Shown piece by piece: positions 25,949-61,141 of a stretch of DNA of 64,000 nucleotides; the first letter of the stretch is position 1; the number at the start of each line of letters is the position of its first letter. A program made the position numbers and the translations under genes. Source of the DNA: Oscillospiraceae bacterium (GTDB lineage: Bacteria > Bacillota > Clostridia > Oscillospirales > UBA929); the NCBI GenBank assembly GCA_031254575.1, contig JAIRUE010000069.1, forward strand, positions 2,330 through 66,329. The letters are read 5' to 3'. The notes below the pieces were generated by a model. That model worked only from the letters and a program-made list of their open reading frames with translations, had not been told where the DNA came from and made no database searches.

Positions 25949-26079
25949 ATCCCCTCGTAAAATTTGATAATAAACTACAAAGCCGGATACCTCACCCCAA
26001 GTGACAAATACGGCTACCCGGCTTTGTATAGCTGTTAGAAAAACAAGAGTATATCTTTGGCCTTAAACAGTTTTGCGGT

Positions 26080-26931: not shown

Positions 26932-27041
26932 ACATACAAACCTCCCTTTTAATTTTGTGGTCTTGAAAAACTCGGCTAATCCCGTTTCTCAACAATATAC
27001 CTCCTCCCCGTTACAAGGTTAGCGTCGCAGTTTACATCATC

Positions 27042-27070
27042 ATTCTACTATAGTCTTTTCTGCTTGTCAA
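27042..27070 (-). promoter_or_regulatory. promoter TTGACA-N17-TAGAAT of the PepSY gene containing the shared GAAAAGACTAWAGTAG motif
   Basis: -35 at 27070-27065 and -10 at 27047-27042. The motif at 27045-27062 matches 28847-28866 with one mismatch over 17 nt. Confidence 0.55.
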
Positions 27071-27099
27071 TAGGCTTTGAAAAATTTTCCGTGATGTCT

Positions 27100-28808: not shown

Positions 28809-28846
28809 TTAAACATCACCTCTGCTGGCTAATCAGCGTTTATAAT

Positions 28847-28896
28847 ACTACTTTAGTCTTTTCTTGTATTGTACATAATCCTTTCCGCTTTGTCAA
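28847..28896 (-). promoter_or_regulatory. promoter TTGACA-N17-TACAAT of the blaI-like operon with the shared motif at the +1 region
   Basis: -35 at 28896-28891 and -10 at 28873-28868. The motif at 28847-28866 sits immediately downstream. A TGTACA core palindrome is at the -10. Confidence 0.55.
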
Positions 28897-29178
28897 GAAA
28901 AATGTTAAACGCCCGCTGATTAAATCAGTACCATTAAAGTCCTTAACGAATGAGTACAGACAAAGATATGGGCTGTGCAGGGGTTTTTGTTTTTTAGTCC
29001 CTTGATTAAAATTTACACCCTTGACAATGTTGCTCTGGCCACCACACTGGGGAGAAAACTCGTGATCGGGCAGGCGTTAGAAGATGGTTAGAAAGCCATT
29101 AAAAATGTATGCCATTCCCAATTTCCCAAGACAAAGCAAAACGCCCGCAATCCACTGATTGCAAGCGTTTCATCCGTC

Positions 29179-29263
29179 TGGTGGGGGAAGGTGGATTCGA
29201 ACCACCGAAGGCGGTGCCAACAGATTTACAGTCTGCCCCCTTTGGCCACTCGGGAATTCCCCC
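29179..29263 (-). tRNA. tRNA-Tyr (anticodon GTA), type II with long variable arm, CCA encoded
   Basis: GGGGGAATTCCCGAGTGGCCAAAGGGGGCAGACTGTAAATCTGTTGGCACCGCCTTCGGTGGTTCGAATCCACCTTCCCCCACCA folds as a cloverleaf. Own TTGACA-N17-TAGAGT promoter upstream and a hairpin terminator at 29136-29172. Confidence 0.95.
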
Positions 29264-41823: not shown

Positions 41824-43332
41824 ATGCCTTTTCCTGCCCTTTATTACGCGGGGGCCGCCGTGCCGGCGCTGCTGCTGATTGCCGCGGCTTTCCTTGTGTT
41901 GCGCAAGGTCCCGGCGGCGGAGTTTTCCGCGCCCGGCGTCCCCGAATATGACCCCGGCGAGGCGGACCGCGCGGCGGAGGCTCTGGCCGAAGCCATCCGC
42001 TGCCGGACGGTCTCGTACCCCGACGTCACCCGGCGGGACTTTTCCCAATGGGTCGCGCTGCGCAGGGTCTTGCGCGAGCGGTATCCTTTGAGCCATGAGC
42101 GCATGATCCCGGAGCACACGGCGGGGCTTTCCACGCTATATAAATGGGAGTCTCCCGAACCGGCTGGCGAGCCCATCCTGCTCTGCGCCCATCTCGACGT
42201 CGTACCGGCGGGCGGCGTCTGGAACGTCCCCCCGTTCGACGGGCATATCGGGGACGGCTTTGTATGGGGCCGGGGCGCGCTTGACTGTAAAAACGTCGTC
42301 GTCTGCCTGTTTTCCGCGCTGGAAAGTCTGTTTGAGGGCGGTTTCGTCCCCGGCCGCGACATCTATCTGGCTCTGGGGCACGACGAGGAACTGGGCGGTC
42401 CCGAAGGAGCGAAGCAGTTCGCCCGGTATTTTGCCCAGCATGGCATACATTTTTCGCTGGTCCTTGACGAGGGCGGTTTCATCACCGACGGCGCGTTTCC
42501 GGCCGGTAAGCCGGTGGCGGACATATGCGCCGCCGAAAAGGGCGTGATGGACGTCCGACTTACGGTGACCGCGCCGGGCGGTCATTCGTCACATCCGCCG
42601 GAGCGCACGGCGGCGGGCCTGCTCTGCGAGGCCGTCTGCCGCGTGGGGTTCAAGCTGCGCCCGGCCCGTATTCTCCCGCTTGTATACGACCATTTTAACA
42701 CCATCGCTCCTCTGCTGGACGGCACGCTGCGCCGTTACGCCGCCACCCCGCGTTTTTACAGAAAAAAGCTGCTCGCCCGCCTCTGCGCGGACGAGAGGAC
42801 GGCGGCGCTGGTGCGGACAACGGTGGCTCCGACCCTTTTGACCGGCGGCGTCGCGCCCAATGTCCTGCCCCCGTCCGCCGAGGCCAATCTCAACATCCGG
42901 CTGCTGCCGGGCGACGACGCGGAGGGGCTTGTATCATGGATCAACGCGCTCACCCGGGACCTGGGCGTCAAAGCCGAGATCGTACTGAATGAAGAGCCTT
43001 CCGGGGTCTCCGATTATAAAGGGGCGGCGTTCTCCGCGCTGGCCGGGGCCGTCAGCGACGTCTTCCCCGGCATTCCCGCCGTGCCGGGCCTGTGCTGCGG
43101 CGCGAGCGACGCGCGGCATTACGAGCCGTTTTCTTCCGCCGTGCTGCGCTTCTCGCCTTTTATCGTGACGCTGAACGAGCTGGCCGCCGTCCACGCCGAG
43201 AACGAGCGCGTTGCCGTCGCCTCGCTGGGCGCGGCGGTACGGTTTTACCGGCGGGTGATCGAACGGTTCTGCTCCCCCGGCGGCGAACAGGGAAATCCGG
43301 GCGTCAAAGAGACGGGAGGGAACGGGATATGA
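41824..43332 (+). CDS. M20/M25/M40-family metallopeptidase with an N-terminal TM anchor
   Basis: LLCAHLDVVP, WGRGALDCK, GHDEELGG, HSSHP. Confidence 0.8.
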   Translation: MPFPALYYAGAAVPALLLIAAAFLVLRKVPAAEFSAPGVPEYDPGEADRAAEALAEAIRCRTVSYPDVTRRDFSQWVALRRVLRERYPLSHERMIPEHTAGLSTLYKWESPEPAGEPILLCAHLDVVPAGGVWNVPPFDGHIGDGFVWGRGALDCKNVVVCLFSALESLFEGGFVPGRDIYLALGHDEELGGPEGAKQFARYFAQHGIHFSLVLDEGGFITDGAFPAGKPVADICAAEKGVMDVRLTVTAPGGHSSHPPERTAAGLLCEAVCRVGFKLRPARILPLVYDHFNTIAPLLDGTLRRYAATPRFYRKKLLARLCADERTAALVRTTVAPTLLTGGVAPNVLPPSAEANLNIRLLPGDDAEGLVSWINALTRDLGVKAEIVLNEEPSGVSDYKGAAFSALAGAVSDVFPGIPAVPGLCCGASDARHYEPFSSAVLRFSPFIVTLNELAAVHAENERVAVASLGAAVRFYRRVIERFCSPGGEQGNPGVKETGGNGI

Positions 43333-44582
43333 ACATATCCGCGCCGCGCGGCACATACGACCTGCTGCCCGGACAGACCGCGCGTTGGCAGCGGCTTGAG
43401 ACTGAACTGCGCCGCACCGCCGCGCTGTTCGGCTACGGGGAAATACGGTTTCCCATGTTTGAGCATACTGAGCTTTTCCGGCGCGGTATGGGCGAAACGG
43501 GCGACGTTGTGCAGAAGGAGATGTACACCTTTCAGGATAAGGACGGCCGTTCGCTGACTTTGCGGCCCGAGGGCACGGCGTCGGTGGCGCGCGCGTTTAT
43601 TGAACACGGATTGCATATGTCGGCGCTGCCGTTCAAATGCTATTATATCGCGCCGAACTTCCGGTATGAAAAGCCGCAGAAGGGGCGCTTCCGCCAGCAT
43701 GTGCAGTTTGGCTGCGAGTGTTTCGGCGCGGCGGAGCCGCAGGCCGACGCGGAGGTCATCTCCCTCGCGCACGCCATCCTGCAAGGACTGGACGTGACGC
43801 TGCATATCAACTCCATCGGCTGTAAGGAATGCCGCCCGGAATACCAGCAAACGCTCCGCGCGTGGCTGGGGGAACGGTCGGCCCGGCTGTGCGGGACATG
43901 CCTTTCCCGTCTGGAGCGGAATCCTATGCGGGTGCTGGACTGTAAAGAGGAGACCTGCGCCGCCCTCGTCAAAGACGCGCCGGTCATCACCGGGCATCTT
44001 TGCGGAAACTGCGCGGATTTCGCGGAAAGGCTGGACTCGCTGCTCAACGCTTCCGGCATCCCCTTTGTCCGCGACCCGCTGATCATGCGGGGTTTTGATT
44101 ACTACACCGGGACCGTGTTTGAGTTTATCTCCGGCGGCATCGGGGCGCAGAGCGCGGTGTGCGCGGGCGGGCGGTACGACGGGCTGGTGGAGGAACTGGG
44201 CGGGCCGCCCATACCCGGGCTGGGGTTCGGGATGGGGCTGGAACGCCTGCTGCTGGCGATGGAAGCGGCGGGGACGGAGCCGGAGAGCCGGGGTCCCGCG
44301 GTGTATCTCGCGCCGATGGGAGACGCCGCCGCCGGAACCTGCGTTAAGTTGTGCAACGAACTGCGCGGTATGGGTGTTTTCGCCGAAACCGACCTGTGCG
44401 GGCGGAGCGTCAAGGCGCAGATGAAATACGCCGGCAAAACCGGCGCGGAATACACGGCCGTGATCGGCGAAAATGAAATCGCGGGCGGCACGGTCATGCT
44501 CAAGAACATGCGGACCGGAGAAACGGCGCCGTGTAAATTGGACGCCGGGGCGATGGCGCACACATACAGGGACGGTTCTTAA
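43329..44582 (+). CDS. hisS: histidine--tRNA ligase
   Basis: RGTYDLLP..LRPEGT..FRYEKPQKGRFRQH..GGRYD. ATGA overlap with the M20 stop. Confidence 0.95.
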   Translation: MNISAPRGTYDLLPGQTARWQRLETELRRTAALFGYGEIRFPMFEHTELFRRGMGETGDVVQKEMYTFQDKDGRSLTLRPEGTASVARAFIEHGLHMSALPFKCYYIAPNFRYEKPQKGRFRQHVQFGCECFGAAEPQADAEVISLAHAILQGLDVTLHINSIGCKECRPEYQQTLRAWLGERSARLCGTCLSRLERNPMRVLDCKEETCAALVKDAPVITGHLCGNCADFAERLDSLLNASGIPFVRDPLIMRGFDYYTGTVFEFISGGIGAQSAVCAGGRYDGLVEELGGPPIPGLGFGMGLERLLLAMEAAGTEPESRGPAVYLAPMGDAAAGTCVKLCNELRGMGVFAETDLCGRSVKAQMKYAGKTGAEYTAVIGENEIAGGTVMLKNMRTGETAPCKLDAGAMAHTYRDGS

Positions 44583-44642
44583 CCGTCCGCAAACGCGTAC
44601 GGGCGGTTGGCAATTGCCCATACAACAGGAGGCAGGAAAGAA

Positions 44643-46361
44643 ATGAAACGCACACATTACTGCGGCGCATTGCGTCTCTCCCACGCCGGGCAAACCGTCA
44701 CTGTCTGCGGCTGGGTCCAGCGCGCGCGCGATCTGGGCGGGCTGGTCTTCATCGACCTGCGCGACCGCGAGGGGATCGTGCAGTGCATTTTTGACTCTGA
44801 AAACCCGCTGTCCGGCGAGGCGGCGCACGCGCGAAGCGAATGGTGCCTTGCCGTGACCGGAACGGTGCGGGAGCGGACGAACAAGAATCTCACGATTCCC
44901 ACAGGCGAAGTGGAAATCGAGGCGGCGGAACTGAGGGTGCTGTCCCGCGCTCAGACGCCGCCGTTTGAAATCGAGGCCGACACAAAAGCAAACGAACTGC
45001 TGCGGCTGGAATACCGCTACCTCGACCTGCGGCGGCCGGTCCTGCAAAAAAATCTGATGATACGTCACCGTGCCCTGCAAACGGTGCGGCGGTATCTGGA
45101 CGCGGAAGGGTTTTATGAAATCGAGACGCCGATGCTGACCGCCTCGACGCCGGAGGGCAGCCGGGATTATCTTGTCCCCTCGCGGCTCCACAGAGGGAAG
45201 TTTTACGCCCTGCCGCAGTCGCCGCAGCAATATAAACAGCTTTTGATGGTCGCCGGGGTGGATAAATATTTTCAGCTCGCCCGCTGCGCCCGCGACGAGG
45301 ATCTCCGCGCCGACCGGCAGCCGGATTTTACCCAGATCGACATGGAGATGAGTTTCGTCGGGATGGAGGACATTTATACCGTCAGCGAGGGCATGATCGC
45401 GGACCTGTTCGGCGCGTTCGGGATCAGCGTCCCTCTCCCGCTCCCCCGGCTGACTTACCGGGAGGCAATGGACCGTTACGGCAGCGATAAGCCCGACACC
45501 CGCTTCGGTTTTGAACTCAAAGATCTGACAGATTTGACACGCGGATGCGGCTTCGCCGTTTTTGAAAGCGCGAAATCGGTGCGCTGTATCGTCGTCGGTC
45601 ACGAGTTTACCCGCAGGGAGACCGACGCGCTGACGGATTTTATCAAAGGGCTTGGCCTTAAAGGCTTGGCATGGCACAAGGCCGAAAGCTCCTCCTTCGG
45701 GAAATTTCTCTCCGGCGACGCCCTCGGACGCCTCTGCGAACACGCCGGCTTTGCCCCCGGCTCCACTCTGTTCGCCGTCGCCGGCGACGACGAGCGGCTT
45801 GTCAAAACATCCCTCGGCGCCCTGCGGCTTGAATGCGCCCGCCGCCTCAATCTGCTCGACCCGGACGTATATCATTTTCTCTGGATTACCGAGTTTCCCA
45901 TGTTTGAGTACAGCGAGGAGGAGGGGCGCTATGTCGCCCAGCATCACCTGTTCACCGCCCCGATGGACGAGGATGTGCCGCTGCTCTCGCAGAAAGACCT
46001 GTCCCAGGTCCGCTCGAAAGCCTACGATATGGTATGCAACGGCTATGAGATCGGCGGAGGTTCGATCCGTATCCACGACGCGGTGTTGCAGGCGAGAGTG
46101 TTCGACCTGCTCGGCCTGTCCAAAGAAGACGCCGACCTGCGTTTCGGGCATATGCTCAAAGCCTTTTCCTACGGGGTCCCGCCCCACGGCGGCATCGCGT
46201 TCGGTTTCGACCGGGTGGCTATGCTGCTCTGCCGGACCGCCAATATCCGCGACGTGATAGCTTTTCCCAAGACGCAATCGGCCGCCGAGCCGATGACCGG
46301 CTGTCCGGTGACGGTGGAGCGGAAGCAGCTGGACGAGCTGGGGATACGGCTCGGTGATTAA
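44643..46361 (+). CDS. aspS: aspartate--tRNA ligase
   Basis: HYCG..GWVQRARDLGGLVFIDLRDREG..FRDEDLRADRQPDFTQID..GGGSIRIH..GIAFGFDR. Confidence 0.95.
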   Translation: MKRTHYCGALRLSHAGQTVTVCGWVQRARDLGGLVFIDLRDREGIVQCIFDSENPLSGEAAHARSEWCLAVTGTVRERTNKNLTIPTGEVEIEAAELRVLSRAQTPPFEIEADTKANELLRLEYRYLDLRRPVLQKNLMIRHRALQTVRRYLDAEGFYEIETPMLTASTPEGSRDYLVPSRLHRGKFYALPQSPQQYKQLLMVAGVDKYFQLARCARDEDLRADRQPDFTQIDMEMSFVGMEDIYTVSEGMIADLFGAFGISVPLPLPRLTYREAMDRYGSDKPDTRFGFELKDLTDLTRGCGFAVFESAKSVRCIVVGHEFTRRETDALTDFIKGLGLKGLAWHKAESSSFGKFLSGDALGRLCEHAGFAPGSTLFAVAGDDERLVKTSLGALRLECARRLNLLDPDVYHFLWITEFPMFEYSEEEGRYVAQHHLFTAPMDEDVPLLSQKDLSQVRSKAYDMVCNGYEIGGGSIRIHDAVLQARVFDLLGLSKEDADLRFGHMLKAFSYGVPPHGGIAFGFDRVAMLLCRTANIRDVIAFPKTQSAAEPMTGCPVTVERKQLDELGIRLGD

Positions 46362-47475
46362 CCTCGACAACGCCGCCGGCACACCCGTCTGCCCCGAGGC
46401 GCGGCAGGCGTTCCTTGACGCGCTCGCGCCGGGCAACCCGTCGTCGCTCCATGCCGCCGGGCGGGCGGCCCGCGCCTGTCTGGACGGGGCGCGGACGGTG
46501 CTGCAAACCGCGCTGGACTGCGAACGCGTTGTCTTCACTTCCGGCGGCACGGAGAGCATCAATCTCGCCCTGCGCGGCGCGGCCGGGGCGTACGGCAGAA
46601 AGAAAAAACATATCGTCACCACAACCTTTGAGCACCCCGCGACGGTCAGCACCCTCTCCGCGCTCAAGGCCGCGGGGTTTTCCGTCACCGAAGTGCCCCC
46701 CCGCGCCGACGGGCGGATACACCCCGAAGACGTCGCCGCCGCCGTGACGGGGGAGACGTTTCTCGTCACCGTGACGCAGGTCGCGGGGGAGACGGGCGCG
46801 CTTCTGGACGTTGAAGCCCTCGCCCGCCTGCTGCGCGGGCAAAGGGACGCGCCCGCCCCGGCGGAACGGGACGGCGGCTCCTTATTGCTGCACGTTGACG
46901 CAGTACAGGGTTTTCTGAAATTTCCCGTAAGTGTGCAAAAGTCCGGGATAGATTTGCTTTCGATCTCCGGCCACAAAGTGCACGCCCCGATGGGGACAGG
47001 AGCGCTGGCCGTCGCGCCCCGCGTGCGCCTTGTCCCTCAAATGACCGGCGGCGGGCAGGAGAACGGCCTGCGTGGCGGCACGGAAGCGCTGCCGCTGATC
47101 GCGGCGCTGGCGGCGGCGGCGCGGGCGTGGTCGCCCGTTGATTCCCGCCTGACGGCTTACGCGGCGCGGCGGCTCGAAACGTCCGGCTGGACGCTTGTGC
47201 CCGGAAGCGACGCGCCGATCCTCTCGGCGGCGTTTCCCGGCGTGCCGGGCGAGGCTTTGCTGCGGACGCTGTCGGACAGGGGCGTTTTGACCGGGTCCGG
47301 TTCGGCCTGCTCGCGCGGCAGGCGGAGTGCGGCGCTGCTGTCCATCAAAACACTGCCCGCCTGGGTGGCGGACAGTGTGATACGGCTGTCGTTTTCACGG
47401 TTTACGGCGATGGAGGAACTGGAGGCGGCGATGGAGATCATACTGGAGACCGCCCGCTCATTTTCCCCGCGCTGA
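46354..47475 (+). CDS. cysteine desulfurase-family aminotransferase class V
   Basis: LDNAAGTP..FTSGGTESINL..SISGHKVHAPMG..SGSACS. Overlaps the aspS stop. Confidence 0.85.
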   Translation: MINLDNAAGTPVCPEARQAFLDALAPGNPSSLHAAGRAARACLDGARTVLQTALDCERVVFTSGGTESINLALRGAAGAYGRKKKHIVTTTFEHPATVSTLSALKAAGFSVTEVPPRADGRIHPEDVAAAVTGETFLVTVTQVAGETGALLDVEALARLLRGQRDAPAPAERDGGSLLLHVDAVQGFLKFPVSVQKSGIDLLSISGHKVHAPMGTGALAVAPRVRLVPQMTGGGQENGLRGGTEALPLIAALAAAARAWSPVDSRLTAYAARRLETSGWTLVPGSDAPILSAAFPGVPGEALLRTLSDRGVLTGSGSACSRGRRSAALLSIKTLPAWVADSVIRLSFSRFTAMEELEAAMEIILETARSFSPR

Positions 47476-47534: not shown

Positions 47535-48008
47535 TCACTTGAATTCAACGGTTCTCGTCTCCGCCGGTTCATCCGGCGGCGGGGGCTGTTCGGTTTGCGG
47601 CGGACGGCGCATTTCCATAAATTTATTTGCCATTTCAAACAAGGTCGTTCTGGTGTTTTCATCTATGAGGCCGCCGTCCCTGTCATACGTTCGCGTCACA
47701 AAGCCGTTTTCCGTTTTAAGTATGATCATTTTCGCCTCACGGGCGTCCGGATCGATGTTGTGGATGATCATTTCCCGGGAAGTGGGGTCTGTGCTCCAAA
47801 AACTCAGAATACTGTAATAGTCGCCCTGCTTTACCGGCTTGATTTTGGTGTATTCCGGCAGACGTCCCCCGCGCGCCATCCGTGAAAACCGCGTCCGCTT
47901 CAGGTAGAGGGCAAAAATTACCAGAGTGAACCCGAAAAGCAGGAGCAGGAGGATGATCCCCGGCCAGGGCGAGCTGTCCTTCACGGGCATATTGACGGAA
48001 ACCACCAA
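47535..48008 (-). CDS. membrane-anchored hypothetical protein
   Basis: One TM helix (GIILLLLLFGFTLVIFALYL), then a soluble domain and a Pro-rich tail. No family recognised. Confidence 0.5.
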   Translation of the reverse strand: MVVSVNMPVKDSSPWPGIILLLLLFGFTLVIFALYLKRTRFSRMARGGRLPEYTKIKPVKQGDYYSILSFWSTDPTSREMIIHNIDPDAREAKMIILKTENGFVTRTYDRDGGLIDENTRTTLFEMANKFMEMRRPPQTEQPPPPDEPAETRTVEFK

Positions 48009-48180
48009 AACCGCTCGCCCCCTCTGTCCTTATTCCGTCACGGCGGTGTCCTTTTCCGCGTCTGTGTGTATTGTAACACAGCTTTCGTAAAAAGGTCAAG
48101 AATCGGGCCCCGTCTCCTATAATGTTTCCGTTGTAAAGTGTACGCTAATCTGGCGGATGTCAAAAAGCGCGAACGGACAC

Positions 48181-48211
48181 AAACCCCGCAGCCTTTGAAA
48201 CTGCGGGGTTT
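48181..48211 (-). terminator. displaced native terminator of tRNA-Val
   Basis: AAACCCCGCAG..CTGCGGGGTTT hairpin directly 3' of the tRNA-Val 3'-half copy. It has the same design as the tRNA-Arg terminator at 61103-61136. Confidence 0.65.
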
Positions 48212-48212
48212 G

Positions 48213-48260
48213 CGTTGGTGGACGATAAGGAACTCGAATCCCTGACCCTCCGCACGTCAA
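48213..48260 (-). repeat. 48-bp direct repeat: orphan copy of the tRNA-Val 3' half (att-like)
   Basis: CGTTGGTGGACGATAAGGAACTCGAATCCCTGACCCTCCGCACGTCAA is identical to 52082-52129. Confidence 0.95.
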
Positions 48261-48403
48261 AAAGATAAAGGATGTATTGCCCTTTCGCGCGCGTTTTTTA
48301 GGAGTGCTTTTTTGCGTTTTATTTTATCTCGTCTTATTTATTTCGCTTCCTTTTCCCTCCTCCCTCTTCATTTTTTGAGAAAATTAACACCATATTGAAA
48401 GAT

Positions 48404-48445
48404 AACTTTCAAAAAGAGAACCGGGAGCGTTTACTGCTCCCGGCT
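48404..48445 (-). terminator. rho-independent terminator of the hydrogenase-like/MCP gene
   Basis: Minus-sense CCGGGAGCAGTAAACGCTCCCGG, followed by TTCTCTTTTT. Confidence 0.7.
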
Positions 48446-48564
48446 TGCTTTACATCTTATTGTTGCCACATATATTGCGAGTTCTTTTGCCTGTTCATCT
48501 GTTAGCGGTATTTTGTTTTGTTTGGCCTTTACCGCACAAATCACTGCGTTGTTGGACGAAAGGG

Positions 48565-50280
48565 TTACCCATCTGTTGTTTCAAAGAGTTTCCTTGTGCT
48601 TTCCGCGACGCCGGATATATGTTCATACGCCGTGTTTACGCTCCGGCTGATCTCTCTTATCATCTCATTGACAGACCCTATCGCGCCGGTTGCCTTTACC
48701 GAAGCGTCCTTTGTCTGGTTGGCGGAGTCGCTGGAGCGTTTGGCGAGTTTTCGTATCTCATCCGCAACCACCGCGAACGCTTTTCCGTGCTCACCCGCGC
48801 GCGCGGCTTCAATCGAGGCGTTGATCGCTATAACATTGACCATCGCGGCAACTTCCTCCACATCGGCTATTGTACGGTTGTACGCAGAAATAGACTCTGT
48901 TATATCATCAATATTGTCTACGATATGCTCCGTTATTCCTTTTATCCCGGAGGTATCCAAGAGTATCGTTTCAAAACTGCTCAGATTGGCTTTTGCATCC
49001 GAGTATTCCCGTGAAATATCGTTACGCGCTTTTTCCATACAGTTCGCCGGGGTATTGATGCCTTTGGCTATCCCTTGCGCCATTTCACGGCATGAATCGC
49101 ATCCGCACGCGCCGCAGTCAAAATGCCTTGACTCTTCATCCAGCTTTCCGAGGGAAACATACGCCTTTTCAAGAGTTGCCGGCGTGACCGGGACCGAGCG
49201 GATCGGAACCGGGCTGTATATCCTTATAAAATCCTCCAGCCGCAGCGTTTCGTCAAAATTCTCAAAGAGTTTGTCAAGGTAGCCGGAATCTTGAATGGCC
49301 GATTGACGCAACCCGTCCATCTTGGTGTTAATGTCAAAAATATCCCCGCCATGTCTGCACCCCGTACCCATATTGCACCCTTCGGCGCAGTTTAATACGT
49401 CAAACAGAACGGGTAGTTTTGATACCTGTTGCTTGGCATACTCGTCCAAAGCCTTGTAAACGGTCTGCTGTCCTTCCGACTTATCAACCCGCAGGGATTT
49501 GCCGATATAATGCTCGACACTTTCCTTCAAGCCGCCCGGCATCGGGTACAGCGAGCCAAGCCCGGCCTCATAATGGTCAAAACCGCTTGTCTCACGCGGG
49601 AAAACAGTATTATGGGACTCTATGTATCCGTACAGGCCGTTCATCGTCACATTGTAATCGACAAGACGGGTGGCCTCAAACTCATGTGTTTTCGCCACGC
49701 ACGGGGAGAGTGCCGCGATTTTTGTCCCTACCCTTTCGTATTTATTCATAAATACGGCGGTGCAGAGCATGGGGGAATGTACGGGGGACAGATATTTCAA
49801 AAGCTCATTGCGGTACATCAAAATGTAATTCACGATGACGGGGCAGGGCTGTGATATGACAGGCTTTGGGCCGTGTTTCCGTATGTAACGGATGTGCGCC
49901 CAAGTGCAGATGTCCGCTCCCAGCGATACGTCGTATATTTTCCGCACCCCTATCGAGCGCAGCCACGTGAACAGCCGCCCTGTTTCCTCAAAATTGGTCT
50001 TTGCCGCCGGGGCCGCGAACAAGCTGATTGGTACGCCTTGTCTCAAATCATCAAAGAACCGCTCCGTATCATCGGTATACCGCCTTGACCCGTGACGGCA
50101 GGCGGTCAGGCACGCGCCGCAGGCAATACACTTTCTGTTATCGACCTCAACGATGATCTTTCCGTCTTTTACGCGCGTGATATTTGCCTCGTCAACAGGG
50201 CATACTCTGACGCAGCGGTTACAGCCCACGCAGTTGTCCAAATTATTGTGAATGATCTTTCGCATACCAGCCTTCTCCAC
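48565..50280 (-). CDS. cytoplasmic fusion protein: 2x[4Fe-4S] ferredoxin + [FeFe]-hydrogenase large-subunit-like domain + Cys-rich motif + methyl-accepting chemotaxis signalling domain
   Basis: CVGCNRCVRVCP and CIACGACLTAC. H-cluster-like motifs SQPCPVIV, SPCVAKTHE and NCAEGCNMGTGC. Then CGACGCDSC and the MCP tip VNVIAINASIEAARAGEHGKAFAVVADEIRKLAKRS. No TM helix. Confidence 0.85.
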   Translation of the reverse strand: MEKAGMRKIIHNNLDNCVGCNRCVRVCPVDEANITRVKDGKIIVEVDNRKCIACGACLTACRHGSRRYTDDTERFFDDLRQGVPISLFAAPAAKTNFEETGRLFTWLRSIGVRKIYDVSLGADICTWAHIRYIRKHGPKPVISQPCPVIVNYILMYRNELLKYLSPVHSPMLCTAVFMNKYERVGTKIAALSPCVAKTHEFEATRLVDYNVTMNGLYGYIESHNTVFPRETSGFDHYEAGLGSLYPMPGGLKESVEHYIGKSLRVDKSEGQQTVYKALDEYAKQQVSKLPVLFDVLNCAEGCNMGTGCRHGGDIFDINTKMDGLRQSAIQDSGYLDKLFENFDETLRLEDFIRIYSPVPIRSVPVTPATLEKAYVSLGKLDEESRHFDCGACGCDSCREMAQGIAKGINTPANCMEKARNDISREYSDAKANLSSFETILLDTSGIKGITEHIVDNIDDITESISAYNRTIADVEEVAAMVNVIAINASIEAARAGEHGKAFAVVADEIRKLAKRSSDSANQTKDASVKATGAIGSVNEMIREISRSVNTAYEHISGVAESTRKLFETTDG

Positions 50281-50410
50281 TCTTAGCCTTTTGCTTTAAT
50301 AGTACCGCTCAATCAACACAATTTACCCATAGTTCTCAGCTTAGTAAAACCGGGGTTGGCGCTCCAGATGAATAAGCGGTTATTCTGAAAAACGAAAATC
50401 TCTAAATTTT

Positions 50411-51613
50411 CTAAAGTGACTCCGTGTAAATTTTTTCAACAACGTCTTTGCCGGAAGCGACAGGCGCGCACTCTAAAAGTCCAGTCAACCCCGGAGTTTC
50501 AAAGGTGAGATTTACCAGCTTGAGTACATTATCTTTTGTGAAACCGACATCAGTCATCGTCTGGGTTACGCCCACGGAATGCAACCACGCGCGCACACCG
50601 TCTGCGGCTTTTTCAGCTTCGTTGGCGTCGCCTGTAAGACTGGGAACAAGGGAGCTAAAAATATCAGCCAGGATAACGCCGCACGCAGGATAGATCGCCT
50701 TGATCACGGCGGGCAGGAGAATAGCCAAACCAAGACCGTGAGGCAATGTCGGCTTAATGCCGCTCAAAGGATGCTCAAGGGCGTGCGTGAGATGAAGCAT
50801 ACCGTTATCGAACGACGTACCTGCGATTAGGGCGGCGTAGGTAAGAAAATACCTGGCCGTAAGGTCTTTCGGGTCTTTTAACGCGGCTGGCAGATACTTT
50901 ACGACCAGCCCAATGACTTCTTTGGCCAAAGAAATCGCAAATGGATTATTGAGGACTGTGGTCGCCGCCTCCACCACATGGTTAACCGCGTCAATGCTCA
51001 CATAACGGGTCTGGTCGGCGGGCAGGCCCGTCATCAGGGCAGGGTCATCAATGGAATACATCGGATAGATGCAATCGTAAGCAATCGCGGGCTTATATTC
51101 CTTTTCTGGGATGGTGACGACCGCAAACCTGTTCGCTTCACTGCCTGTTCCGTGAGTGAGATTAATCGCAATGATCGGCACAGCCTTTTCGGCGGTGAAC
51201 TTCATCTCATACAGGTCCTGACAGGTTTTGTCTGGGTATTCCATGAGAACCGCCACGCTTTTCCCCGCGTCTATGGGACTTCCGCCTCCAATACAAATAA
51301 CGGCTTTCGCTCCTGCGTCCCTTGCGATTTTTACCGCCTCGTCAACCTGATGGGTTTCCGGATTCGGCTGTACCTTGTTGTAGAGCGTATAACGGATACC
51401 CTGTGCGCCGAGCGCTTTTGTCACATGATCCCAAGCGCCGGTTGTGGCGTAAGCGGCTTTTCCGGTCATAACTATGACGCTGTCAACTCCCTTGTCCTTG
51501 AGCTGCCCCGCAACAAAGTTCATCTTCTCAATGGCTCCCGCCCCCAAAAATATGTGGCTGCCGCAGATAATTGTGCTGACATTGTTTACGTTGACCGCTT
51601 TCTCCCAAGACAT
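50411..51613 (-). CDS. iron-containing alcohol dehydrogenase (400 aa)
   Basis: GGGSPIDAGK, ..THGTGSE.., DAVNH..LTHALEHPL Fe-ADH motifs. AAGGAG RBS before ATG 51613. Confidence 0.88.
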   Translation of the reverse strand: MSWEKAVNVNNVSTIICGSHIFLGAGAIEKMNFVAGQLKDKGVDSVIVMTGKAAYATTGAWDHVTKALGAQGIRYTLYNKVQPNPETHQVDEAVKIARDAGAKAVICIGGGSPIDAGKSVAVLMEYPDKTCQDLYEMKFTAEKAVPIIAINLTHGTGSEANRFAVVTIPEKEYKPAIAYDCIYPMYSIDDPALMTGLPADQTRYVSIDAVNHVVEAATTVLNNPFAISLAKEVIGLVVKYLPAALKDPKDLTARYFLTYAALIAGTSFDNGMLHLTHALEHPLSGIKPTLPHGLGLAILLPAVIKAIYPACGVILADIFSSLVPSLTGDANEAEKAADGVRAWLHSVGVTQTMTDVGFTKDNVLKLVNLTFETPGLTGLLECAPVASGKDVVEKIYTESL

Positions 51614-51738
51614 AGTAATTTCTCCTTTTACAATAGTTTTTTGGGTCATGAGCTTAAACAGGTACATACTACGTTCTTTTAATATTTCCCATTTGTCCAC
51701 CTCCCGTCATGACTAAAACGGTCAAAAAATCAACCGCA

Positions 51739-51791
51739 ATTTGATATAGTCATTATCGATACCCCATATATCGATAATGACTATATCAAAT
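51739..51791. repeat. 23-bp perfect inverted repeat (ATTTGATATAGTCATTATCGATA / 7-nt loop / TATCGATAATGACTATATCAAAT)
   Basis: Arms at 51739-51761 and 51769-51791, about 125 nt upstream of the ADH start and inside the islet. Confidence 0.9.
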
Positions 51792-52084
51792 GCCCGGGTG
51801 TTTGTCAATCGGATGTTTGAAATTTATTCCCCCAAAAAGTATGTACGAAAAAGTAAACAATACATAGCGGGACTAATGCTTCATAAGCGGCCTCGAAAAA
51901 CTCAGAAGGGGCGAGTGCCCCATCGAACGGCAGTGTGCCACAGTGGGTACGTGAAGCGGAGCAGGGCGAGATTGACGAGTTGCCGTTTTAGAAGCGGATG
52001 GCGTACCGTTGGCGCACAATCCAAAAACGCACCTTGACAACAAAACAAGAGAACGCCCAAACCTTTGCGGCTCAAGCGTTCCGT

Positions 52085-52160
52085 TGGTGGACGATAAGGA
52101 ACTCGAATCCCTGACCCTCCGCACGTCAAGCGGATGCTCTACCAACTGAGCTAATCGTCC
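52085..52160 (-). tRNA. tRNA-Val (anticodon GAC), CCA encoded
   Basis: GGACGATTAGCTCAGTTGGTAGAGCATCCGCTTGACGTGCGGAGGGTCAGGGATTCGAGTTCCTTATCGTCCACCA forms a cloverleaf. The promoter TTGACA-N16-TATAAT is at 52175-52202. Confidence 0.95.
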
Positions 52161-52277
52161 GGGACACTTTTTATTATACACGGAAAACCCTGTCTGTCAA
52201 GCGGTTTTTGCGTCCCGCGCACAAAATTGCCGCGCCGCCTCCGGGCGGCGCGGCTCTGTGTCACAGCGGCCGGCGCT

Positions 52278-53141
52278 TTACGGCAGATACTCCGTCGGAT
52301 CGACCGGCTCGCCGTCTTTGAGGATCTCAAAATGCAGATGCGGAGGCAATGCCTGCTCGGCGACGGCCGTCTCCCCCACCGCGCCAATAGTGTCCCCGGC
52401 CTTCACGCTTTTGCCCTCCGTGACCGTCGAGGCCGGCGACAGGTTGGAATAAACGGTGGTATATCCGCCGGAGTGCTCGATAACAATGCTCGCGCCCATG
52501 TTGCGCGCCGCGCTGTCAATGACCTCCTTGACAACGCCGTCAGCGGCGGCCTGCACCAACGCGCCCGCGTTGGTTTCAATATCCACGCCGGGATGATAGC
52601 GCCATTCGCGCAGGGCTTCAAAAAAGACGTCCGCGCTCTCGCTGAAGCCCACCAGTATATCACCGTTGACAGGCGGATAGAAATCGGGCTTTGCGGCAAC
52701 GGCGGGCTGCGGCGGCTCGTCCGGAACGGCCGGCATTTCCGGCGCGTTCCCCGCGACCTCCATACCTTCCCCTTCCTCCATACCGTCCACATTGACGGTA
52801 CCCCGGGCGTCGTTGGGACCGGCTCCGCTCTGCGGCAGCGCCCCTCCGGACGGGGACGGAACCGTCAGCGGCGGCGGTGAGGACGGCGGCAGCGCCGGCG
52901 ACGGGGACGGGTTGGCCGGAGCAGCTGAAATCCGGGGCTGTGCCGGACTGGGCGACGCTCCGGGGGACACCAGCGCCAAACTGGGCGGATCGGGCGTTTC
53001 GCCCGAGCCTCCGAAGAACAGCATGTACCCGGACGCGCCAATGGCGGCCACACAAAGGATCAAAACCACGTAAAACCCTTTGCCCGCGAAAAAATCCAGC
53101 AGTCTGTGCGCTTTTCCTTGCTTGTGATTCAATGGTAACAC
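52278..53141 (-). CDS. M23-family peptidoglycan metalloendopeptidase, membrane-anchored
   Basis: N-terminal TM helix, Pro/Ser-rich linker, LytM motifs HPGVD and HLHFE. Confidence 0.85.
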   Translation of the reverse strand: MLPLNHKQGKAHRLLDFFAGKGFYVVLILCVAAIGASGYMLFFGGSGETPDPPSLALVSPGASPSPAQPRISAAPANPSPSPALPPSSPPPLTVPSPSGGALPQSGAGPNDARGTVNVDGMEEGEGMEVAGNAPEMPAVPDEPPQPAVAAKPDFYPPVNGDILVGFSESADVFFEALREWRYHPGVDIETNAGALVQAAADGVVKEVIDSAARNMGASIVIEHSGGYTTVYSNLSPASTVTEGKSVKAGDTIGAVGETAVAEQALPPHLHFEILKDGEPVDPTEYLP

Positions 53142-53219: not shown

Positions 53220-53558
53220 CTATATACCGCTCCCGATCCCCAGCGAGCAGACCATTGTTTTGATAAGTTCCACTTGCGCGGCCTCCAGACCCCTCAGCGC
53301 GCCCACGATCTCACCGATCCATTTTTCCTTGTCTCCCGTGTTATCCTGCCTCTCTATCGGCAGTAAATCCGACAGCCCTATGTTGAACAGCCCGCATATC
53401 TCGACCAGCTTATTCAGGCTGATCCCCTTGCGGCCCTGCTCGATATTGGCGATATGCAGCGTCGAGGCGCCGATCTTATCCGCCAGCTGTTCCTGTGTCA
53501 GCGCGTTTTTCTTTCTGTAAAGCCGGATCCTCTTACCGATGATATTTGTGTCTTCCAT
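53220..53558 (-). CDS. XRE-family HTH transcriptional regulator (112 aa)
   Basis: IRLYRKKNALTQEQLADKIGASTLHIANIEQG. Confidence 0.8.
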   Translation of the reverse strand: MEDTNIIGKRIRLYRKKNALTQEQLADKIGASTLHIANIEQGRKGISLNKLVEICGLFNIGLSDLLPIERQDNTGDKEKWIGEIVGALRGLEAAQVELIKTMVCSLGIGSGI

Positions 53559-53743
53559 GAACGGCCCCGCCTTTCCGTTATGTTGTCCGTCAATGCGCCG
53601 TTTTGAAAACGCTTGTAAAAGGGCGGATATTTTGGTATTATCGTTATACCGACCGCTAAAATTTTATCATATACGACACAAAACGCCGTATATTCCCTCA
53701 GTCTTAATCTATGCAAAACTATATTCAGAAAGGTTTGAGCGCA

Positions 53744-54544
53744 ATGGACAAGGTAAGACCGATGCCCCTGCTGCTGATCGAGGACGAGGTGAGCGACTGC
53801 GCCCGGTTTAAGGAGTGCGCCGACCGCAGGACCGACGTCATCTTCGTCGGCATGACCGATTCGTGCGAGGAAGGGATAAAGCTGGTACAGTCCCGGCTGC
53901 CGGAGGGCGTTATTCTGGATTTGCAGTTGGTCAAAGGGGCGGGATCGGGCCTCCGGTTTCTGGAAATCCTGAATGAAGCCGAGCTGGCGTTCCGCCCGAT
54001 TGTCATTATCACCACCAGCAACCAGTCCAATTTGGTTTACGACCGTATCGAGGGGTTGGGCGCGGATTGGATATTCTGCAAGAAACAGAAGGGTTACAGC
54101 GAATCCTTTGTCGTAGAGACGATGCTCTCGCTGCGGGAATCGTTGCATACAAAGCAGCGCGGGGGCGCGTCGAAGGAACGGCAGCTCATAGAATCTCCGG
54201 AGGAGCGGGACACCCGCATATACAACCGTATTGATACCGAGCTTAACCTGGTCGGCGTCCGCGTGCGCTTCAAGGGCCACGAATACCTCCGCGACGCCAT
54301 CTACCTTAAACTCAATGATGAAAAGGGCGCCGGCTCGGCGATCGAACAGGTCGCCCAAAAACACCATCACGCCTACCCCACCGTCAGCAAGGTCATGCAG
54401 ACGGCCATTAACAATGCCTGGGACAACGCAAGCATCGGGGAACTGCAAACATACTACACCGCCCACATCAGCTCCAAAACCGGCGTCCCCTCCGCCACCG
54501 ATTTCATCTATTTCTACGCCGACAAAATACGCAAGACTATGTAG
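53744..54544 (+). CDS. response regulator with a Spo0A C-terminal-type DNA-binding domain (Spo0A paralog)
   Basis: Receiver domain (LLLIEDE..VILDLQL..ITTS). The C-terminus VGVRVRFKGHEYLRDAIYLKL..YPTVSKVMQTAINNAWDN..PSATDFIYFYADKIR is collinear with Spo0A_C (IKGYLYLREAI..VERAIRHAIEVAW..NSEFIAMVADKLR). Confidence 0.75.
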   Translation: MDKVRPMPLLLIEDEVSDCARFKECADRRTDVIFVGMTDSCEEGIKLVQSRLPEGVILDLQLVKGAGSGLRFLEILNEAELAFRPIVIITTSNQSNLVYDRIEGLGADWIFCKKQKGYSESFVVETMLSLRESLHTKQRGGASKERQLIESPEERDTRIYNRIDTELNLVGVRVRFKGHEYLRDAIYLKLNDEKGAGSAIEQVAQKHHHAYPTVSKVMQTAINNAWDNASIGELQTYYTAHISSKTGVPSATDFIYFYADKIRKTM

Positions 54545-54620
54545 CGTGAAAAAACATGACTATTGATTCCTATTTATCTTATCCGCGTATAGACATGTTG
54601 ATGTAATTTTAGACAATCCT

Positions 54621-54658
54621 TACCATACGGAGATTTTATCTCCGTATGGTATTTTTTT
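54621..54658 (+). terminator. rho-independent terminator after the Spo0A-like gene
   Basis: TACCATACGGAGAT-TTT-ATCTCCGTATGGTA, followed by TTTTTTT. Confidence 0.85.
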
Positions 54659-54708
54659 GTCAATAAAGGCTGAAAGGCCGAAAAATATTAAGATGGAGGA
54701 CATAAATC

Positions 54709-54750
54709 ATGTGGAGTTGGCTCTGGCAATTCTTAGCTCTCGGCTGCTAA
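54709..54750 (+). CDS. 13-codon micro-ORF MWSWLWQFLALGC
   Basis: GGAGGA at 54696-54701, 7 nt before the ATG, and a dedicated terminator follows. An alternative overlapping 22-codon ORF (54693-54761, MEDINHVELALAILSSRLLIPY) lacks an SD. Confidence 0.35.
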   Translation: MWSWLWQFLALGC

Positions 54751-54768
54751 TCCCGTACTAACAACTGG

Positions 54769-54808
54769 GGAGAAACCGGATAAAAACCGGTTTCTCTTGT
54801 TTTTTTGC
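54769..54808 (+). terminator. rho-independent terminator after the micro-ORF
   Basis: GAGAAACCGG-ATAAAA-ACCGGTTTCTC, followed by TTGTTTTTTT. Confidence 0.8.
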
Positions 54809-54850
54809 CAAAAATGGAGTAGAATTGTAAAAAACGGGAAGGTAAACGCG

Positions 54851-56362
54851 ATGACTGTATTGTTTTGGTGCAATATGATCGGCACAATGGGAACACTTTT
54901 TACCAGTATATACATATGCCGGAAAGCCGTCAGCCATAAGACGTCTCCTTTGCTAAATGTGTTATCCATTCCTTGGTGTTTTATATGGGCATTGCTCTAT
55001 GCCATTGATCTTCCTTGGCTGCCGTCATTGGCGGTACGGCCGGTCACTTGCATCGTGTTTGTTGTAGTCATCAGGGTAACATTCAAAATCAAGCCCGACA
55101 CGGTGGTGTCGGCATATTTGCTCTCATATGGCAGCAGTTATTTTCTTTACTTCATTGCGGGAATCCCAATTGGTCTTGCTTTCGCTCCGTTTTTAGGCGC
55201 GGAACATACCGCTGAAAAGATTGTCGAGTTCAGCGAACCCATTTATTTACTGTCATATATTCTTGTGGCATCCGTTCAGTTTCTGATGGCGTACGGTTTC
55301 TTCAAAATAAGGCGTTTTAAGAAAGGATTCCCCTTTCTATTCAAAAAGTATACAGTCGTTATAGCTCTGGTCGCCGCCGGTATCGTTTTGGCACTTGTAT
55401 CTCTGTTCTCCGCGCCCCGTGAAACATATGAGAACAGCTTTCTTGCCTTTTTCCCGTTTATCGTGGGTATATTGATTATCGGCGTCGGCATTTTCATCTG
55501 GATACGGAGGGGGATAAAGGCGTTTTATAAAAAATGGGTGCGGGAGAATAACGAGGAGCTGTACCGCCGGGAACTGGAGGAGAAGGAGCGGGAGATCCGG
55601 CGGTTGACGGAACTGTGCGAGACGGTGAGGGCGGCGAATCACGGCATGATACACCGGCAGGCCGCCGTGGAGCGCCGCGTGGCGGAAATCCTGGAAAGGA
55701 TGGCGGAACCGGGGATTGACGCCGGACTCCGCGGGGAACTGGCGGAGGCGCTGGAAGACGTCCGCGGGCTGTCGCGGGAGTACGGGGAAAAGGTCGGCCG
55801 GGTAAATACAAATAAGACGCTGCCCTCCACGAATGTGAAAACGGCGGACGCCCTGTTCGCGCATTTCGCGGAAAAATGCGCGGACAGCGGCATAGACTTC
55901 ACCCTCAAAGTCAACGGCAGCGTCGTTCCCATGATTGAAAAGGCGATTGCGCGGGACAGGCTGGAGACATTGATCGGCGACCACCTTCAGGACGCGCTGA
56001 TCGCGGTCAGCGCGGGCGGCGGGACCCGCAATATTCTGGCGGTGATCGGGGAAGCCGGGGACTGTTATGAGTTTTCGGTACACGACAGCGGCATTCCTTT
56101 CGAGGCGGACACGCTGGCGCGGCTTGGCGCGGAGCGTGTGACCACCCGCGCCGGAGAGGGCGGCAGCGGGTTCGGCTTCATGGCCACGTTTGAAACCATG
56201 CGGGAATGCGGCGCCAGCCTTATCATCAGGGAGAACAAACCGGGCGGCGCCTTCTCCAAATCCGTCACCATCCGTTTTGACGGCGGGAACCGGTACATCA
56301 TCAAAACCCACCGCCCCGGCGGCTTCCCTCCCAGCGACAGATACACGGTCGTTCCTCAATGA
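54851..56362 (+). CDS. polytopic membrane sensor kinase with GHKL ATPase domain (AgrC/LytS-like architecture)
   Basis: About 6 N-terminal TM helices, a coiled coil, candidate H region ANHGMIHRQ, and an ATPase domain with HDSGIPF and GGSGFGFM. GGAAGG RBS before ATG 54851. Confidence 0.7.
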   Translation: MTVLFWCNMIGTMGTLFTSIYICRKAVSHKTSPLLNVLSIPWCFIWALLYAIDLPWLPSLAVRPVTCIVFVVVIRVTFKIKPDTVVSAYLLSYGSSYFLYFIAGIPIGLAFAPFLGAEHTAEKIVEFSEPIYLLSYILVASVQFLMAYGFFKIRRFKKGFPFLFKKYTVVIALVAAGIVLALVSLFSAPRETYENSFLAFFPFIVGILIIGVGIFIWIRRGIKAFYKKWVRENNEELYRRELEEKEREIRRLTELCETVRAANHGMIHRQAAVERRVAEILERMAEPGIDAGLRGELAEALEDVRGLSREYGEKVGRVNTNKTLPSTNVKTADALFAHFAEKCADSGIDFTLKVNGSVVPMIEKAIARDRLETLIGDHLQDALIAVSAGGGTRNILAVIGEAGDCYEFSVHDSGIPFEADTLARLGAERVTTRAGEGGSGFGFMATFETMRECGASLIIRENKPGGAFSKSVTIRFDGGNRYIIKTHRPGGFPPSDRYTVVPQ

Positions 56363-60100: not shown

Positions 60101-61092
60101 ATGAGATGATGGAACGCTATATTTATGACGTCACGCGCCGTTTGCCGGAGAAGGAGCGGGGCGAAGTCGGGCGGGAACTGGAGGCGGGTATAAACGACAT
60201 GCTCCCCGATAACCCCGGCGAGCAGGACGTTATTGCCGCGCTGACAACGCTCGGCGAGCCGCGCATATTGGCGGAGCGGTACCGGCAGAAAGCGCGGTAT
60301 TTAATTTCCCCCGCCATGTTCGATCCCTACATCTCGGTATTGAAGGTGGTGGCGCCGGTCGTCGCGGGCGTTTTTATCGTACTCGCCCTGCTGACGGGCG
60401 AGAGGACAATGGGGTCCGTTCCATACGCGCATTTTCAACGCGTTGTTCAAATCTTTGCGCAAGCGACGGAAGCTGCTCTTGCGGGCGCTATGCAGGCCGC
60501 GTTTTGGGTCACGCTGGTGTTCGCCATTGCCGGACGCCGCGGTTACAAGGCAAAACCGTGGACGGTTGCAGACCTGCCGCGCCCAAGGGACCAAAAGGGT
60601 GTGAAAATCCCGCGCTCCTCCACCGTTACCGGCCTGATCCTGACTGTATTTTTCACCGGCCTGATCGTCATAATGCTTCTCCGCGACGAATGGTTTTTGG
60701 TGTTCGCAAACAATTCGGAGATAATCCCTCTCTTTTCACCGGCCGCAAGGCTCAGGCTGATTCCTTTTATCATTATCCAGGGAAGCCTCTCCTTTGCCGT
60801 GTCCGCTCTGAAGCTATACTGGGCGCGGTGGAACCTCCCGCTCTGTATCGTAAACGCCGCTTATACGGCCTTCTGGCTCGGCGTCACGGTCCATATCCTG
60901 CATTGGCCCGACCTGTTCAGCGCGGAGATGATCGCCTTCACCGATACGCTTGCCGGCAGGCTCAACACCGTCCCCCACATCACGGCGGAAGGGATCAAAA
61001 CCGGCTTTGCCGTCCTGCTGGCCGCCGCCGCGGCCATTGAAATCGGCACGTCGGCCTGGAAAACATGGAAAGGAATGAGAACCCCGGCATAA
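60097..61092 (+). CDS. PadR-associated membrane protein (DUF1700/HAAS-like N-terminus plus multiple TM helices)
   Basis: ERYIYDVTRRLPEKERGEVGRELEAGINDML..LGEP. ATGA overlap with the padR stop. 5-6 TM helices. Confidence 0.7.
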   Translation: MNEMMERYIYDVTRRLPEKERGEVGRELEAGINDMLPDNPGEQDVIAALTTLGEPRILAERYRQKARYLISPAMFDPYISVLKVVAPVVAGVFIVLALLTGERTMGSVPYAHFQRVVQIFAQATEAALAGAMQAAFWVTLVFAIAGRRGYKAKPWTVADLPRPRDQKGVKIPRSSTVTGLILTVFFTGLIVIMLLRDEWFLVFANNSEIIPLFSPAARLRLIPFIIIQGSLSFAVSALKLYWARWNLPLCIVNAAYTAFWLGVTVHILHWPDLFSAEMIAFTDTLAGRLNTVPHITAEGIKTGFAVLLAAAAAIEIGTSAWKTWKGMRTPA

Positions 61093-61102
61093 TACGCGAA
61101 AG

Positions 61103-61136
61103 AAACCCCGCAACCTCATTCACGGTTGCGGGGTTT
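61103..61136. terminator. bidirectional hairpin terminator (serves tRNA-Arg and the + strand gene)
   Basis: AAACCCCGCAACC-loop-GGTTGCGGGGTTT. Confidence 0.7.
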
Positions 61137-61141
61137 GCCTG

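Follow-up and report, generated by a model that had tools for sequence, protein, structure and literature searches.

The 64-kb window analyzed here (64,000 nucleotides of contig JAIRUE010000069.1, Oscillospiraceae bacterium, assembly GCA_031254575.1) is a housekeeping chromosomal region, encoding LeuRS, SMC, AspRS, and FeoB, and our subject within it is a small islet on the 3′ side of a tRNA-Val(GAC) gene. The unique interior of the islet (48261-52081; 3,821 bp, or 3,869 bp with one repeat copy) holds two genes—one for a hydrogenase-like chemoreceptor and one for an iron-containing alcohol dehydrogenase (Fe-ADH)—and lies between two copies of the 3′ part of tRNA-Val. One copy belongs to the intact tRNA gene; the other is an orphan fragment, found 3.87 kb downstream of tRNA-Val in the tRNA sense, and both are on the minus strand. 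The exact core of the repeat is 48 nt long (48213-48260 = 52082-52129), with a start-to-start spacing of 3869 bp, and it extends to 51 nt if one mismatch is allowed (48210-48260 vs. 52079-52129), and it is the sole outstanding direct repeat between 46 and 54 kb. In tRNA coordinates, the core corresponds to nt 32-76 plus ACG—that is, its first base is also the first of the anticodon loop (TTGACGT), and the encoded CCA is part of it—and the tRNA part of the orphan copy (48216-48260, 45 nt) is 100% identical to tRNA-Val. An exact 48-nt repeat in 64 kb cannot be a product of chance. No further tRNA in the window has a duplicated end, and k-mers of tRNA-Tyr and tRNA-Arg do not recur elsewhere in it. 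Two additional candidates were rejected: a remnant of tRNA-like sequence within the islet (score 29, where shuffles averaged 28.6) and a second junction resembling an attachment (att) site at 51992-52017, which 29 of 500 shuffles equaled.

Islands integrated into tRNA genes are delimited by the regenerated tRNA gene and its displaced fragment, and the Islander algorithm looks for such a 3′ fragment on the downstream side of the tRNA gene, oriented as the gene is (PMC4383910). A block of identity that begins at the anticodon loop and reaches the CCA end is, moreover, a recognized class of attB site for tyrosine integrases (bioRxiv 10.1101/2020.11.02.365908). The islet has a tRNA gene with its cognate fragment, on the expected side and in the expected orientation, and the identity block falls at the anticodon loop, a recognized sublocation like the T-loop and the 3′ end; of the features used by Islander, the integrase alone is missing. 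It is thus like the tRNA-integrated islands and prophages found by Islander in its regenerated tRNA, its directly oriented 3′ fragment, and its block from anticodon loop to CCA, whereas Islander islands must hold a tyrosine integrase gene (PMC4383910) and the islet has none.

The sequences behind the two tRNA-Val ends differ in kind. The hairpin behind the orphan fragment (48177-48215), which overlaps the final three bases of the repeat, has a AAACCCCGC...GCGGGGTTT stem in common with the tRNA-Arg hairpin at 61080-61141, and because of this common stem we regard it as the host's own type of tRNA terminator. The hairpin behind the intact gene, by comparison, starts 2 nt after tRNA-Val and consists of 14 pairs followed by CTTGTTTTGT; a counterpart of it on another contig is the only relative found for either end of the islet. 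Specifically, the 45-nt core had one exact match in the metagenome collection, on JGI contig Ga0082212_10101584 (L093; positions 1-2857, 2.9 kb, GC content 46.5%), where a tRNA-Val(GAC) identical to that of the window at 76 of 76 positions is followed, at the same 2-nt spacing, by a hairpin that aligns in register with the islet-supplied one (25/32 identical; alignment score 29, vs. 19.1 ± 2.4 for shuffles). The L093 hairpin is unlike the window's native tRNA-Val terminator, and similarity between L093 and the islet stops at the hairpin end. At its tRNA-proximal end the islet resembles the DNA 3′ of tRNA-Val in a lower-GC organism, and what follows the orphan fragment resembles host sequence; L093 may represent a donor-like lineage for that end of the islet. 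If the native 3′ end was displaced, a foreign-type flank behind the intact tRNA and a host-type flank behind the orphan fragment are exactly what would be predicted. No integrase-sized open reading frame (ORF) adjoins tRNA-Val on L093; upstream of the tRNA, there are ORFs that, judged by eye, resemble a VapB/VapC-type toxin-antitoxin pair and an AAA-ATPase.

A preliminary description of this DNA had stated that the last 45 nt of tRNA-Val plus 3 downstream nt recur exactly at 48213-48260, that a terminator like that of tRNA-Arg follows this orphan copy, that the native 3′ end and its terminator appeared to be displaced, and that the whole is the footprint of site-specific integration into a tRNA 3′ half. 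The repeat search recovered the first at 48 of 48 positions, and the shared stem bears out the second; displacement is supported by the host-type hairpin behind the orphan and the foreign-type hairpin behind the intact gene, and the integration footprint by repeat geometry, terminators, attB sublocation, and codon composition.

With regard to composition, the islet has a GC content of 49.2%; the remainder of the window stands at 57.4% and the immediate left flank at 62-72%, and the shift is abrupt at both repeat copies. GC content at third codon positions (GC3) is 0.58-0.60 in the two islet genes and 0.73-0.81 in five flanking genes (AspRS, an aminotransferase, an M23 peptidase, a helix-turn-helix (HTH) protein, and a Spo0A-like regulator; a small left-flank ORF was set apart), a difference of ~15-20 points. 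These values support a foreign origin, short of proving it, with GC3 being the more reliable measure.

We found no integrase, excisionase, recombinase, or transposase domain in the ORFs or non-coding ends of the islet using Pfam and NCBIfam, nor any integrase, recombinase, resolvase, or transposase domain among ~53 plausible ORFs across the window. The non-coding ends (304 and 384 nt) are too short and too rich in stop codons to hide an integrase. The preliminary account of the interior—two cargo genes only (a hydrogenase-like/methyl-accepting chemotaxis protein (MCP) fusion and an Fe-ADH), about 380 nt of non-coding DNA next to the tRNA, a 23-bp perfect palindrome, and no integrase, excisionase, or transposase ORF—was accurate on each count: Pfam searches of the interior ORFs returned these two genes, the non-coding stretch up to the tRNA measures 384 nt from the longest Fe-ADH ORF and 471 nt from its likely start codon (ATG 51613), the palindrome has its arms at 51739-51761 and 51769-51791, and the absence of mobility genes holds for both the islet and the scanned ORFs of the window. 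The features of the locus are collected in Table 1.

Table 1. Features of the tRNA-Val islet and its borders, in window coordinates (dG in kcal/mol)
Feature	Position	Strand	Evidence
Native tRNA-Val terminator hairpin, displaced, now behind the orphan fragment only	48177..48215	-	dG -29.4, z -5.7
Orphan displaced tRNA-Val 3′ fragment (nt 32-76 + ACG), distal att junction	48213..48260	-	48/48 identity to 52082-52129
Left non-coding arm, AT- and pyrimidine-rich; would-be attP arm on circularization	48261..48418	.	Stop codons in all six frames
Terminator-like hairpin behind the hydrogenase-like MCP gene	48419..48445	-	10-pair stem, then CTCTTTTTGA; dG -21.2, z -4.0
Cargo gene 1: soluble chemoreceptor, 2x[4Fe-4S] + [FeFe]-hydrogenase H-domain-like sensor + MCP, 566 aa	48565..50265	-	Pfam
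Cargo gene 2: iron-containing (group III) alcohol dehydrogenase, 400 aa	50411..51613	-	Pfam Fe-ADH, ADH_Fe_C
Perfect palindrome, 23-nt arms, 7-nt spacer	51739..51791	.	dG -37.9, z -8.0
Sigma-70-like Fe-ADH promoter (TTGACA, 17 nt, TG-TATAGT)	51780..51808	-	11/12 positions match, extended -10 TG
Right non-coding arm, usual place of an integrase gene	51809..52049	.	Stop codons in all frames
Islet-supplied hairpin with U-rich tail behind the intact tRNA (replacement terminator)	52050..52082	-	dG -20.1, z -3.3
Direct-repeat copy within the intact tRNA, tRNA-proximal att junction	52082..52129	-	Repeat search; tRNA-coordinate mapping
Intact tRNA-Val(GAC), CCA encoded	52085..52160	-	ARAGORN; Rfam tRNA 65.5 bits; cloverleaf fold
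Host promoter of tRNA-Val (TTGACA, 16 nt, TATAAT)	52173..52200	-	12/12 positions match

Turning to the cargo, the product of the first gene matches the Pfam families Fer4, Fe_hyd_lg_C (residues 90-305), FeS, and MCPsignal (451-565), with residues numbered on the 571-aa ORF that starts at 50280. Its scores against the NCBIfam models FeFe_hydrog_B1 and A fall far below the cut-offs for catalytic hydrogenases. Alignment to PDB sequences shows that the cluster-binding cysteines of SPCVAK and NCAEGC are retained and that TSCCP reads SQPCP, so the proton-relay cysteine is lost. Taken together, the protein fits the features of a sensory (group C-like) [FeFe]-hydrogenase-MCP fusion—in its 2x[4Fe-4S] domain, H-domain cysteines, missing proton-relay cysteine, and C-terminal MCP domain—and we take it to belong with the putative sensory group C enzymes fused to MCP domains in the classification of Greening et al. 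Homologs with the same architecture number in the thousands, the nearest being 68% identical, and location in an islet is the sole point in which this one is unusual among such fusions. The second gene, with its likely ATG at 51613 preceded by a AAAGGAGA ribosome-binding site, encodes a generic group III enzyme: it scores below every NCBIfam equivalog cut-off, and its top PDB matches are NAD-dependent methanol and alcohol dehydrogenases. Its nearest relatives are 79-84% identical. Relatives of both cargo genes are unlinked, ordinary chromosomal genes, with no tRNA or integrase nearby in any of the retrieved contexts. Because the closest relatives are unlinked in the chromosomes of other bacteria, the pair is a mosaic cargo rather than a native operon, and the two genes have different histories.

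The palindrome upstream of Fe-ADH has no second copy in the window and no match in viral contigs, and the -10 element of the Fe-ADH promoter lies inside it. This 53-bp structure is probably an operator for some regulator. We rejected the idea that it is a conserved Fe-ADH operator, as the orthologs on L091 and L092 have no such palindrome upstream, and nothing favors a role as an origin of transfer (oriT) or other mobility site; Rfam matches of the palindrome to miRNA families were far below gathering scores and were taken as noise. On the left, the region between the orphan fragment and the first cargo gene (48261-48564, 304 nt) has a GC content of 0.395, stop codons in all six frames, and no Pfam or NCBIfam match. 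An Rfam match to “Termite-leu” here (48359-48448, minus strand), overlapping the terminator of the MCP gene, is probably noise as well (26 bits vs. a gathering score of 51; E 0.017). On the right, the sole ORF of the arm (51777-52037, plus strand, 86 aa) likewise has no match in Pfam or NCBIfam.

Comparison with other genomes was shaped by the isolation of the host. The best AspRS match among those listed from species-representative genomes is 56% identical, and no tRNA-Val was found near aspS in 60 of the 80 listed AspRS loci, the 60 that were scanned for tRNAs. Orthologs of the M23 peptidase (52278-53141), on the other side of the tRNA, are 57-69% identical; only the peptidase itself is common to these loci and the window, with no synteny, and no tRNA-Val adjoins it in any of them, so an empty site cannot be derived from the M23 loci. 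In its three closest relatives (L085-L087), the peptidase follows a conserved block of ferredoxin, TP_methylase, FliD, FliS, and DUF327 genes; since the window has none of this block, synteny breaks at the tRNA-Val/M23 region. Metagenome contigs gave 0 exact matches to the predicted empty-site junction. In viral contigs, the predicted attP junction, the 45-nt and 26-nt cores, and the pattern of hairpin plus tRNA end all had 0 matches. Islet DNA had no match in phages and matched plasmids in a generic MCP hairpin region only, and its non-coding ends showed no similarity to any of 93 retrieved loci. Exact-protein look-ups for the M23 peptidase, the Fe-ADH, and the hydrogenase-like MCP returned no identical record. 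The failure to find an empty site or an intact relative reflects the lack of a close relative of the host in the collections. Many of the relatives of host and cargo are from metagenome and metagenome-assembled genome sets recognizable as termite-gut studies.

We consider it likely that the islet is the decayed remnant of a larger island that targeted tRNA-Val, and that it is immobile unless a cognate integrase arrives. In this scheme, an attP site on a circular element would have recombined site-specifically with the chromosomal tRNA-Val(GAC) gene, the crossover falling in or beside the anticodon loop, in the manner typical of tyrosine integrases that target tRNA genes. This element would have brought its own copy of tRNA nt 32-76 together with its own terminator hairpin, regenerating a functional tRNA-Val behind the host promoter and pushing the host 3′ half and terminator 3.87 kb away. 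The larger island would later have lost its integrase module by deletion, leaving the two cargo genes and ~480 nt of former attP arms, and renewed movement would be possible only with a cognate integrase supplied by another element. We infer from the footprint that integration was integrase-mediated, that an integrase gene was formerly present, and that the islet is presently immobile. Since it retains att sites and encodes no recombinase, the islet fits best as an element resembling a cis-mobilizable element (CIME).

Several observations weigh against this interpretation. The loss of an integrase by deletion is surmised, because no recognizable integrase pseudogene fragment is left in the islet. 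The orphan repeat is still perfect, which implies that the insertion is recent and that decay has had little time, although one deletion would suffice. Integrase attP arms often carry arm-type repeats, and these are not enriched in the reconstructed ~480-nt attP (3 observed, vs. 1.1 ± 1.4 expected). No related integrase-bearing element was found in viral or metagenome contigs, plasmids, phages, or the 93 retrieved loci, and neither an empty site nor a circle junction was matched in the contig collections searched. Composition is also less clear-cut than the preliminary description of a more AT-rich interior implied: the difference itself stands, both in overall GC content and in GC3, with the qualification that the tetranucleotide distance of the islet is only ~1.4 standard deviations above the mean, blocks at 25-29 kb and 34-40 kb deviate more, and the left-flank ORF at 47535-48008 already has a lower GC content than genes further left. 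Because the window is compositionally mosaic, GC content alone is weak evidence.

Foremost among the alternatives is that the islet has always lacked an integrase and is a minimal integrative cassette—an attP and two genes, inserted and excised in trans by a tyrosine integrase located elsewhere in the genome or on a co-resident element. This would account for the complete lack of an integrase remnant, for perfect repeats suggestive of recent activity, for a replacement tRNA terminator that seems fit for purpose, and for the way in which the ends, once circularized, would form one region of ~480 nt, the size of an attP, set neatly between promoter and terminator. On the other hand, no cognate integrase is present among the ORFs scanned in the window, no sibling with the same ends turned up in any collection searched, and arm-type repeats are not enriched; we consider such a cassette unlikely. 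A bolder version, in which an active, integrase-free mini-island is shuttled through tRNA-Val by an integrase elsewhere and circulates among gut Clostridia, would be compatible with the same perfect repeats, missing remnant, and tidy layout, and we hold it to be quite unlikely. Small elements that carry a recombination site and depend on a recombinase encoded elsewhere do exist, in the form of integrative mobile elements exploiting Xer recombination (IMEX elements, such as CTX phage) and integron cassettes. These use dif/XerCD or attI/attC with IntI rather than a tRNA gene, and they resemble the islet only if it is mobilized in trans.

A second possibility dispenses with a dedicated integrase altogether: circular foreign DNA with a 3′ fragment of tRNA-Val, captured in a previous host, could have entered by a RecA-dependent, Campbell-type single crossover. 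Perfect identity over 48 nt is enough for inefficient homologous recombination, and the islet has no integrase and no enrichment of arm-type sites. Foreign DNA carrying a tRNA-Val segment is also plausible, because an identical tRNA-Val with a related hairpin occurs in the unrelated, lower-GC organism represented by L093. What makes this route very unlikely in our judgment is the position of the boundary, as the identity sets in precisely with the first anticodon-loop base, which is expected of an evolved attP and arbitrary for random capture; a random boundary would have a ~1 in 10 chance of falling inside the loop. Furthermore, a captured fragment would more likely have included the whole 76-nt tRNA, yielding two full copies.

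The islet could, in principle, be an artifact of metagenome assembly, with lower-GC DNA spliced into the host contig via a shared tRNA-Val. The window's proteins are confined to one 66.8-kb contig, and their clusters have one or two member sequences each; a 46.5%-GC organism has an identical tRNA-Val; and the change in GC content is abrupt at both repeat copies. However, a chimera formed through a shared tRNA would have one switch point, not a return through a 45-nt partial copy followed by a host-type terminator, and the observed structure would still need a partial tRNA copy in real DNA. Since the largest k-mers used by common assemblers exceed 48 nt, the length of the repeat, spanning reads are needed at both junctions; we regard a chimera as highly improbable. 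Finally, local duplication of the tRNA 3′ end by replication slippage or segmental duplication, with native genes in the interior, would suit the many Fe-ADH relatives of 75-84% identity in Oscillospiraceae, the apparent family of the host, and is hardly credible given the distinct GC3 of the interior, the different terminators (host-type and foreign-type) that follow the two copies, the lack of any other duplicated sequence, and the repeat boundary at the anticodon loop.

The decayed island that we favor has precedents. CIMEs are flanked by att sites and lack integration and transfer genes; known first from the fda locus of Streptococcus thermophilus and cataloged in ICEberg 2.0, they are seen as decayed integrative and conjugative or integrative and mobilizable elements (ICEs/IMEs) that can be re-mobilized by accretion with an incoming element that uses their site (PMC5704250, PMC6323972). 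The islet is like them in its attL/attR repeats, its few cargo genes, and the absence of integration and transfer genes. In contrast, described CIMEs owe their recognition to related ICEs or IMEs that share their att sites, and cis-mobilization has been demonstrated, whereas no related integrase-bearing element is known for the islet, and its target is an anticodon-loop site of tRNA-Val in an uncultured Oscillospiraceae-like host. PYG1, inserted in tRNA-Gln between 44-bp repeats, is a comparable case (PMC9897764); at 3.8 kb, the islet is smaller than the examples given there, which range from ~9 kb to ~121 kb (PMC9897764). On balance, we regard the islet as an ordinary, probably decayed genomic islet rather than a new kind of element.

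Elsewhere in the window, the strongest compositional outlier is a block at 25000-29178 (GC content 0.38-0.51, tetranucleotide distance 0.42, GC3 0.38-0.45), which abuts the 3′ side of tRNA-Tyr (29179-29263, minus strand) and encodes a BlaI/BlaR1-like repressor/sensor pair, a PepSY protein, and a TetR regulator. Perhaps the block is an island of greater age; a second island at tRNA-Tyr is not supported, as neither a tRNA-Tyr fragment nor an integrase was found. To the right of the M23 peptidase lies another lower-GC patch (53220-56362, 0.40-0.55), with genes for an HTH_3 protein, a Spo0A_C-type response regulator, and a histidine-kinase-like protein (the HATPase_c match being weak). Beside tRNA-Arg, the gene at 61302-63944 (minus strand) encodes an 880-aa protein made up almost wholly of RCC1 repeats (12 stretches, with matches to RCC1-like domains), an architecture uncommon for a bacterial chromosomal gene. 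A full-length protein of the GGGtGRT family (PF14057, 637 bits), a conserved family of unknown function, is encoded at 17218-18231 (minus strand). A 1243-aa ORF at 43245-46976 (minus strand) has no Pfam match and lies antisense to the genes for AspRS and the aminotransferase; it is almost certainly spurious, an antisense ORF of high GC, and it illustrates how unreliable a guide ORF length is in this window.

The islet is a clean example, resolved to the single nucleotide, of a tRNA gene that keeps a record of horizontal gene transfer once the mobile machinery is gone. Islets of this kind are discarded by algorithms that, like Islander, depend on an integrase, so their contribution to gene flow in uncultured gut Clostridia is under-counted. 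Trans-mobilization, if it proved true, would establish a new class of integrase-parasitic cassettes, and with the mini-island integron cassettes or IMEX elements would have a counterpart that targets tRNA genes. A cargo comprising an alcohol dehydrogenase and a chemoreceptor that probably senses H2 or redox state suggests niche adaptation to a fermentative, H2-rich habitat.

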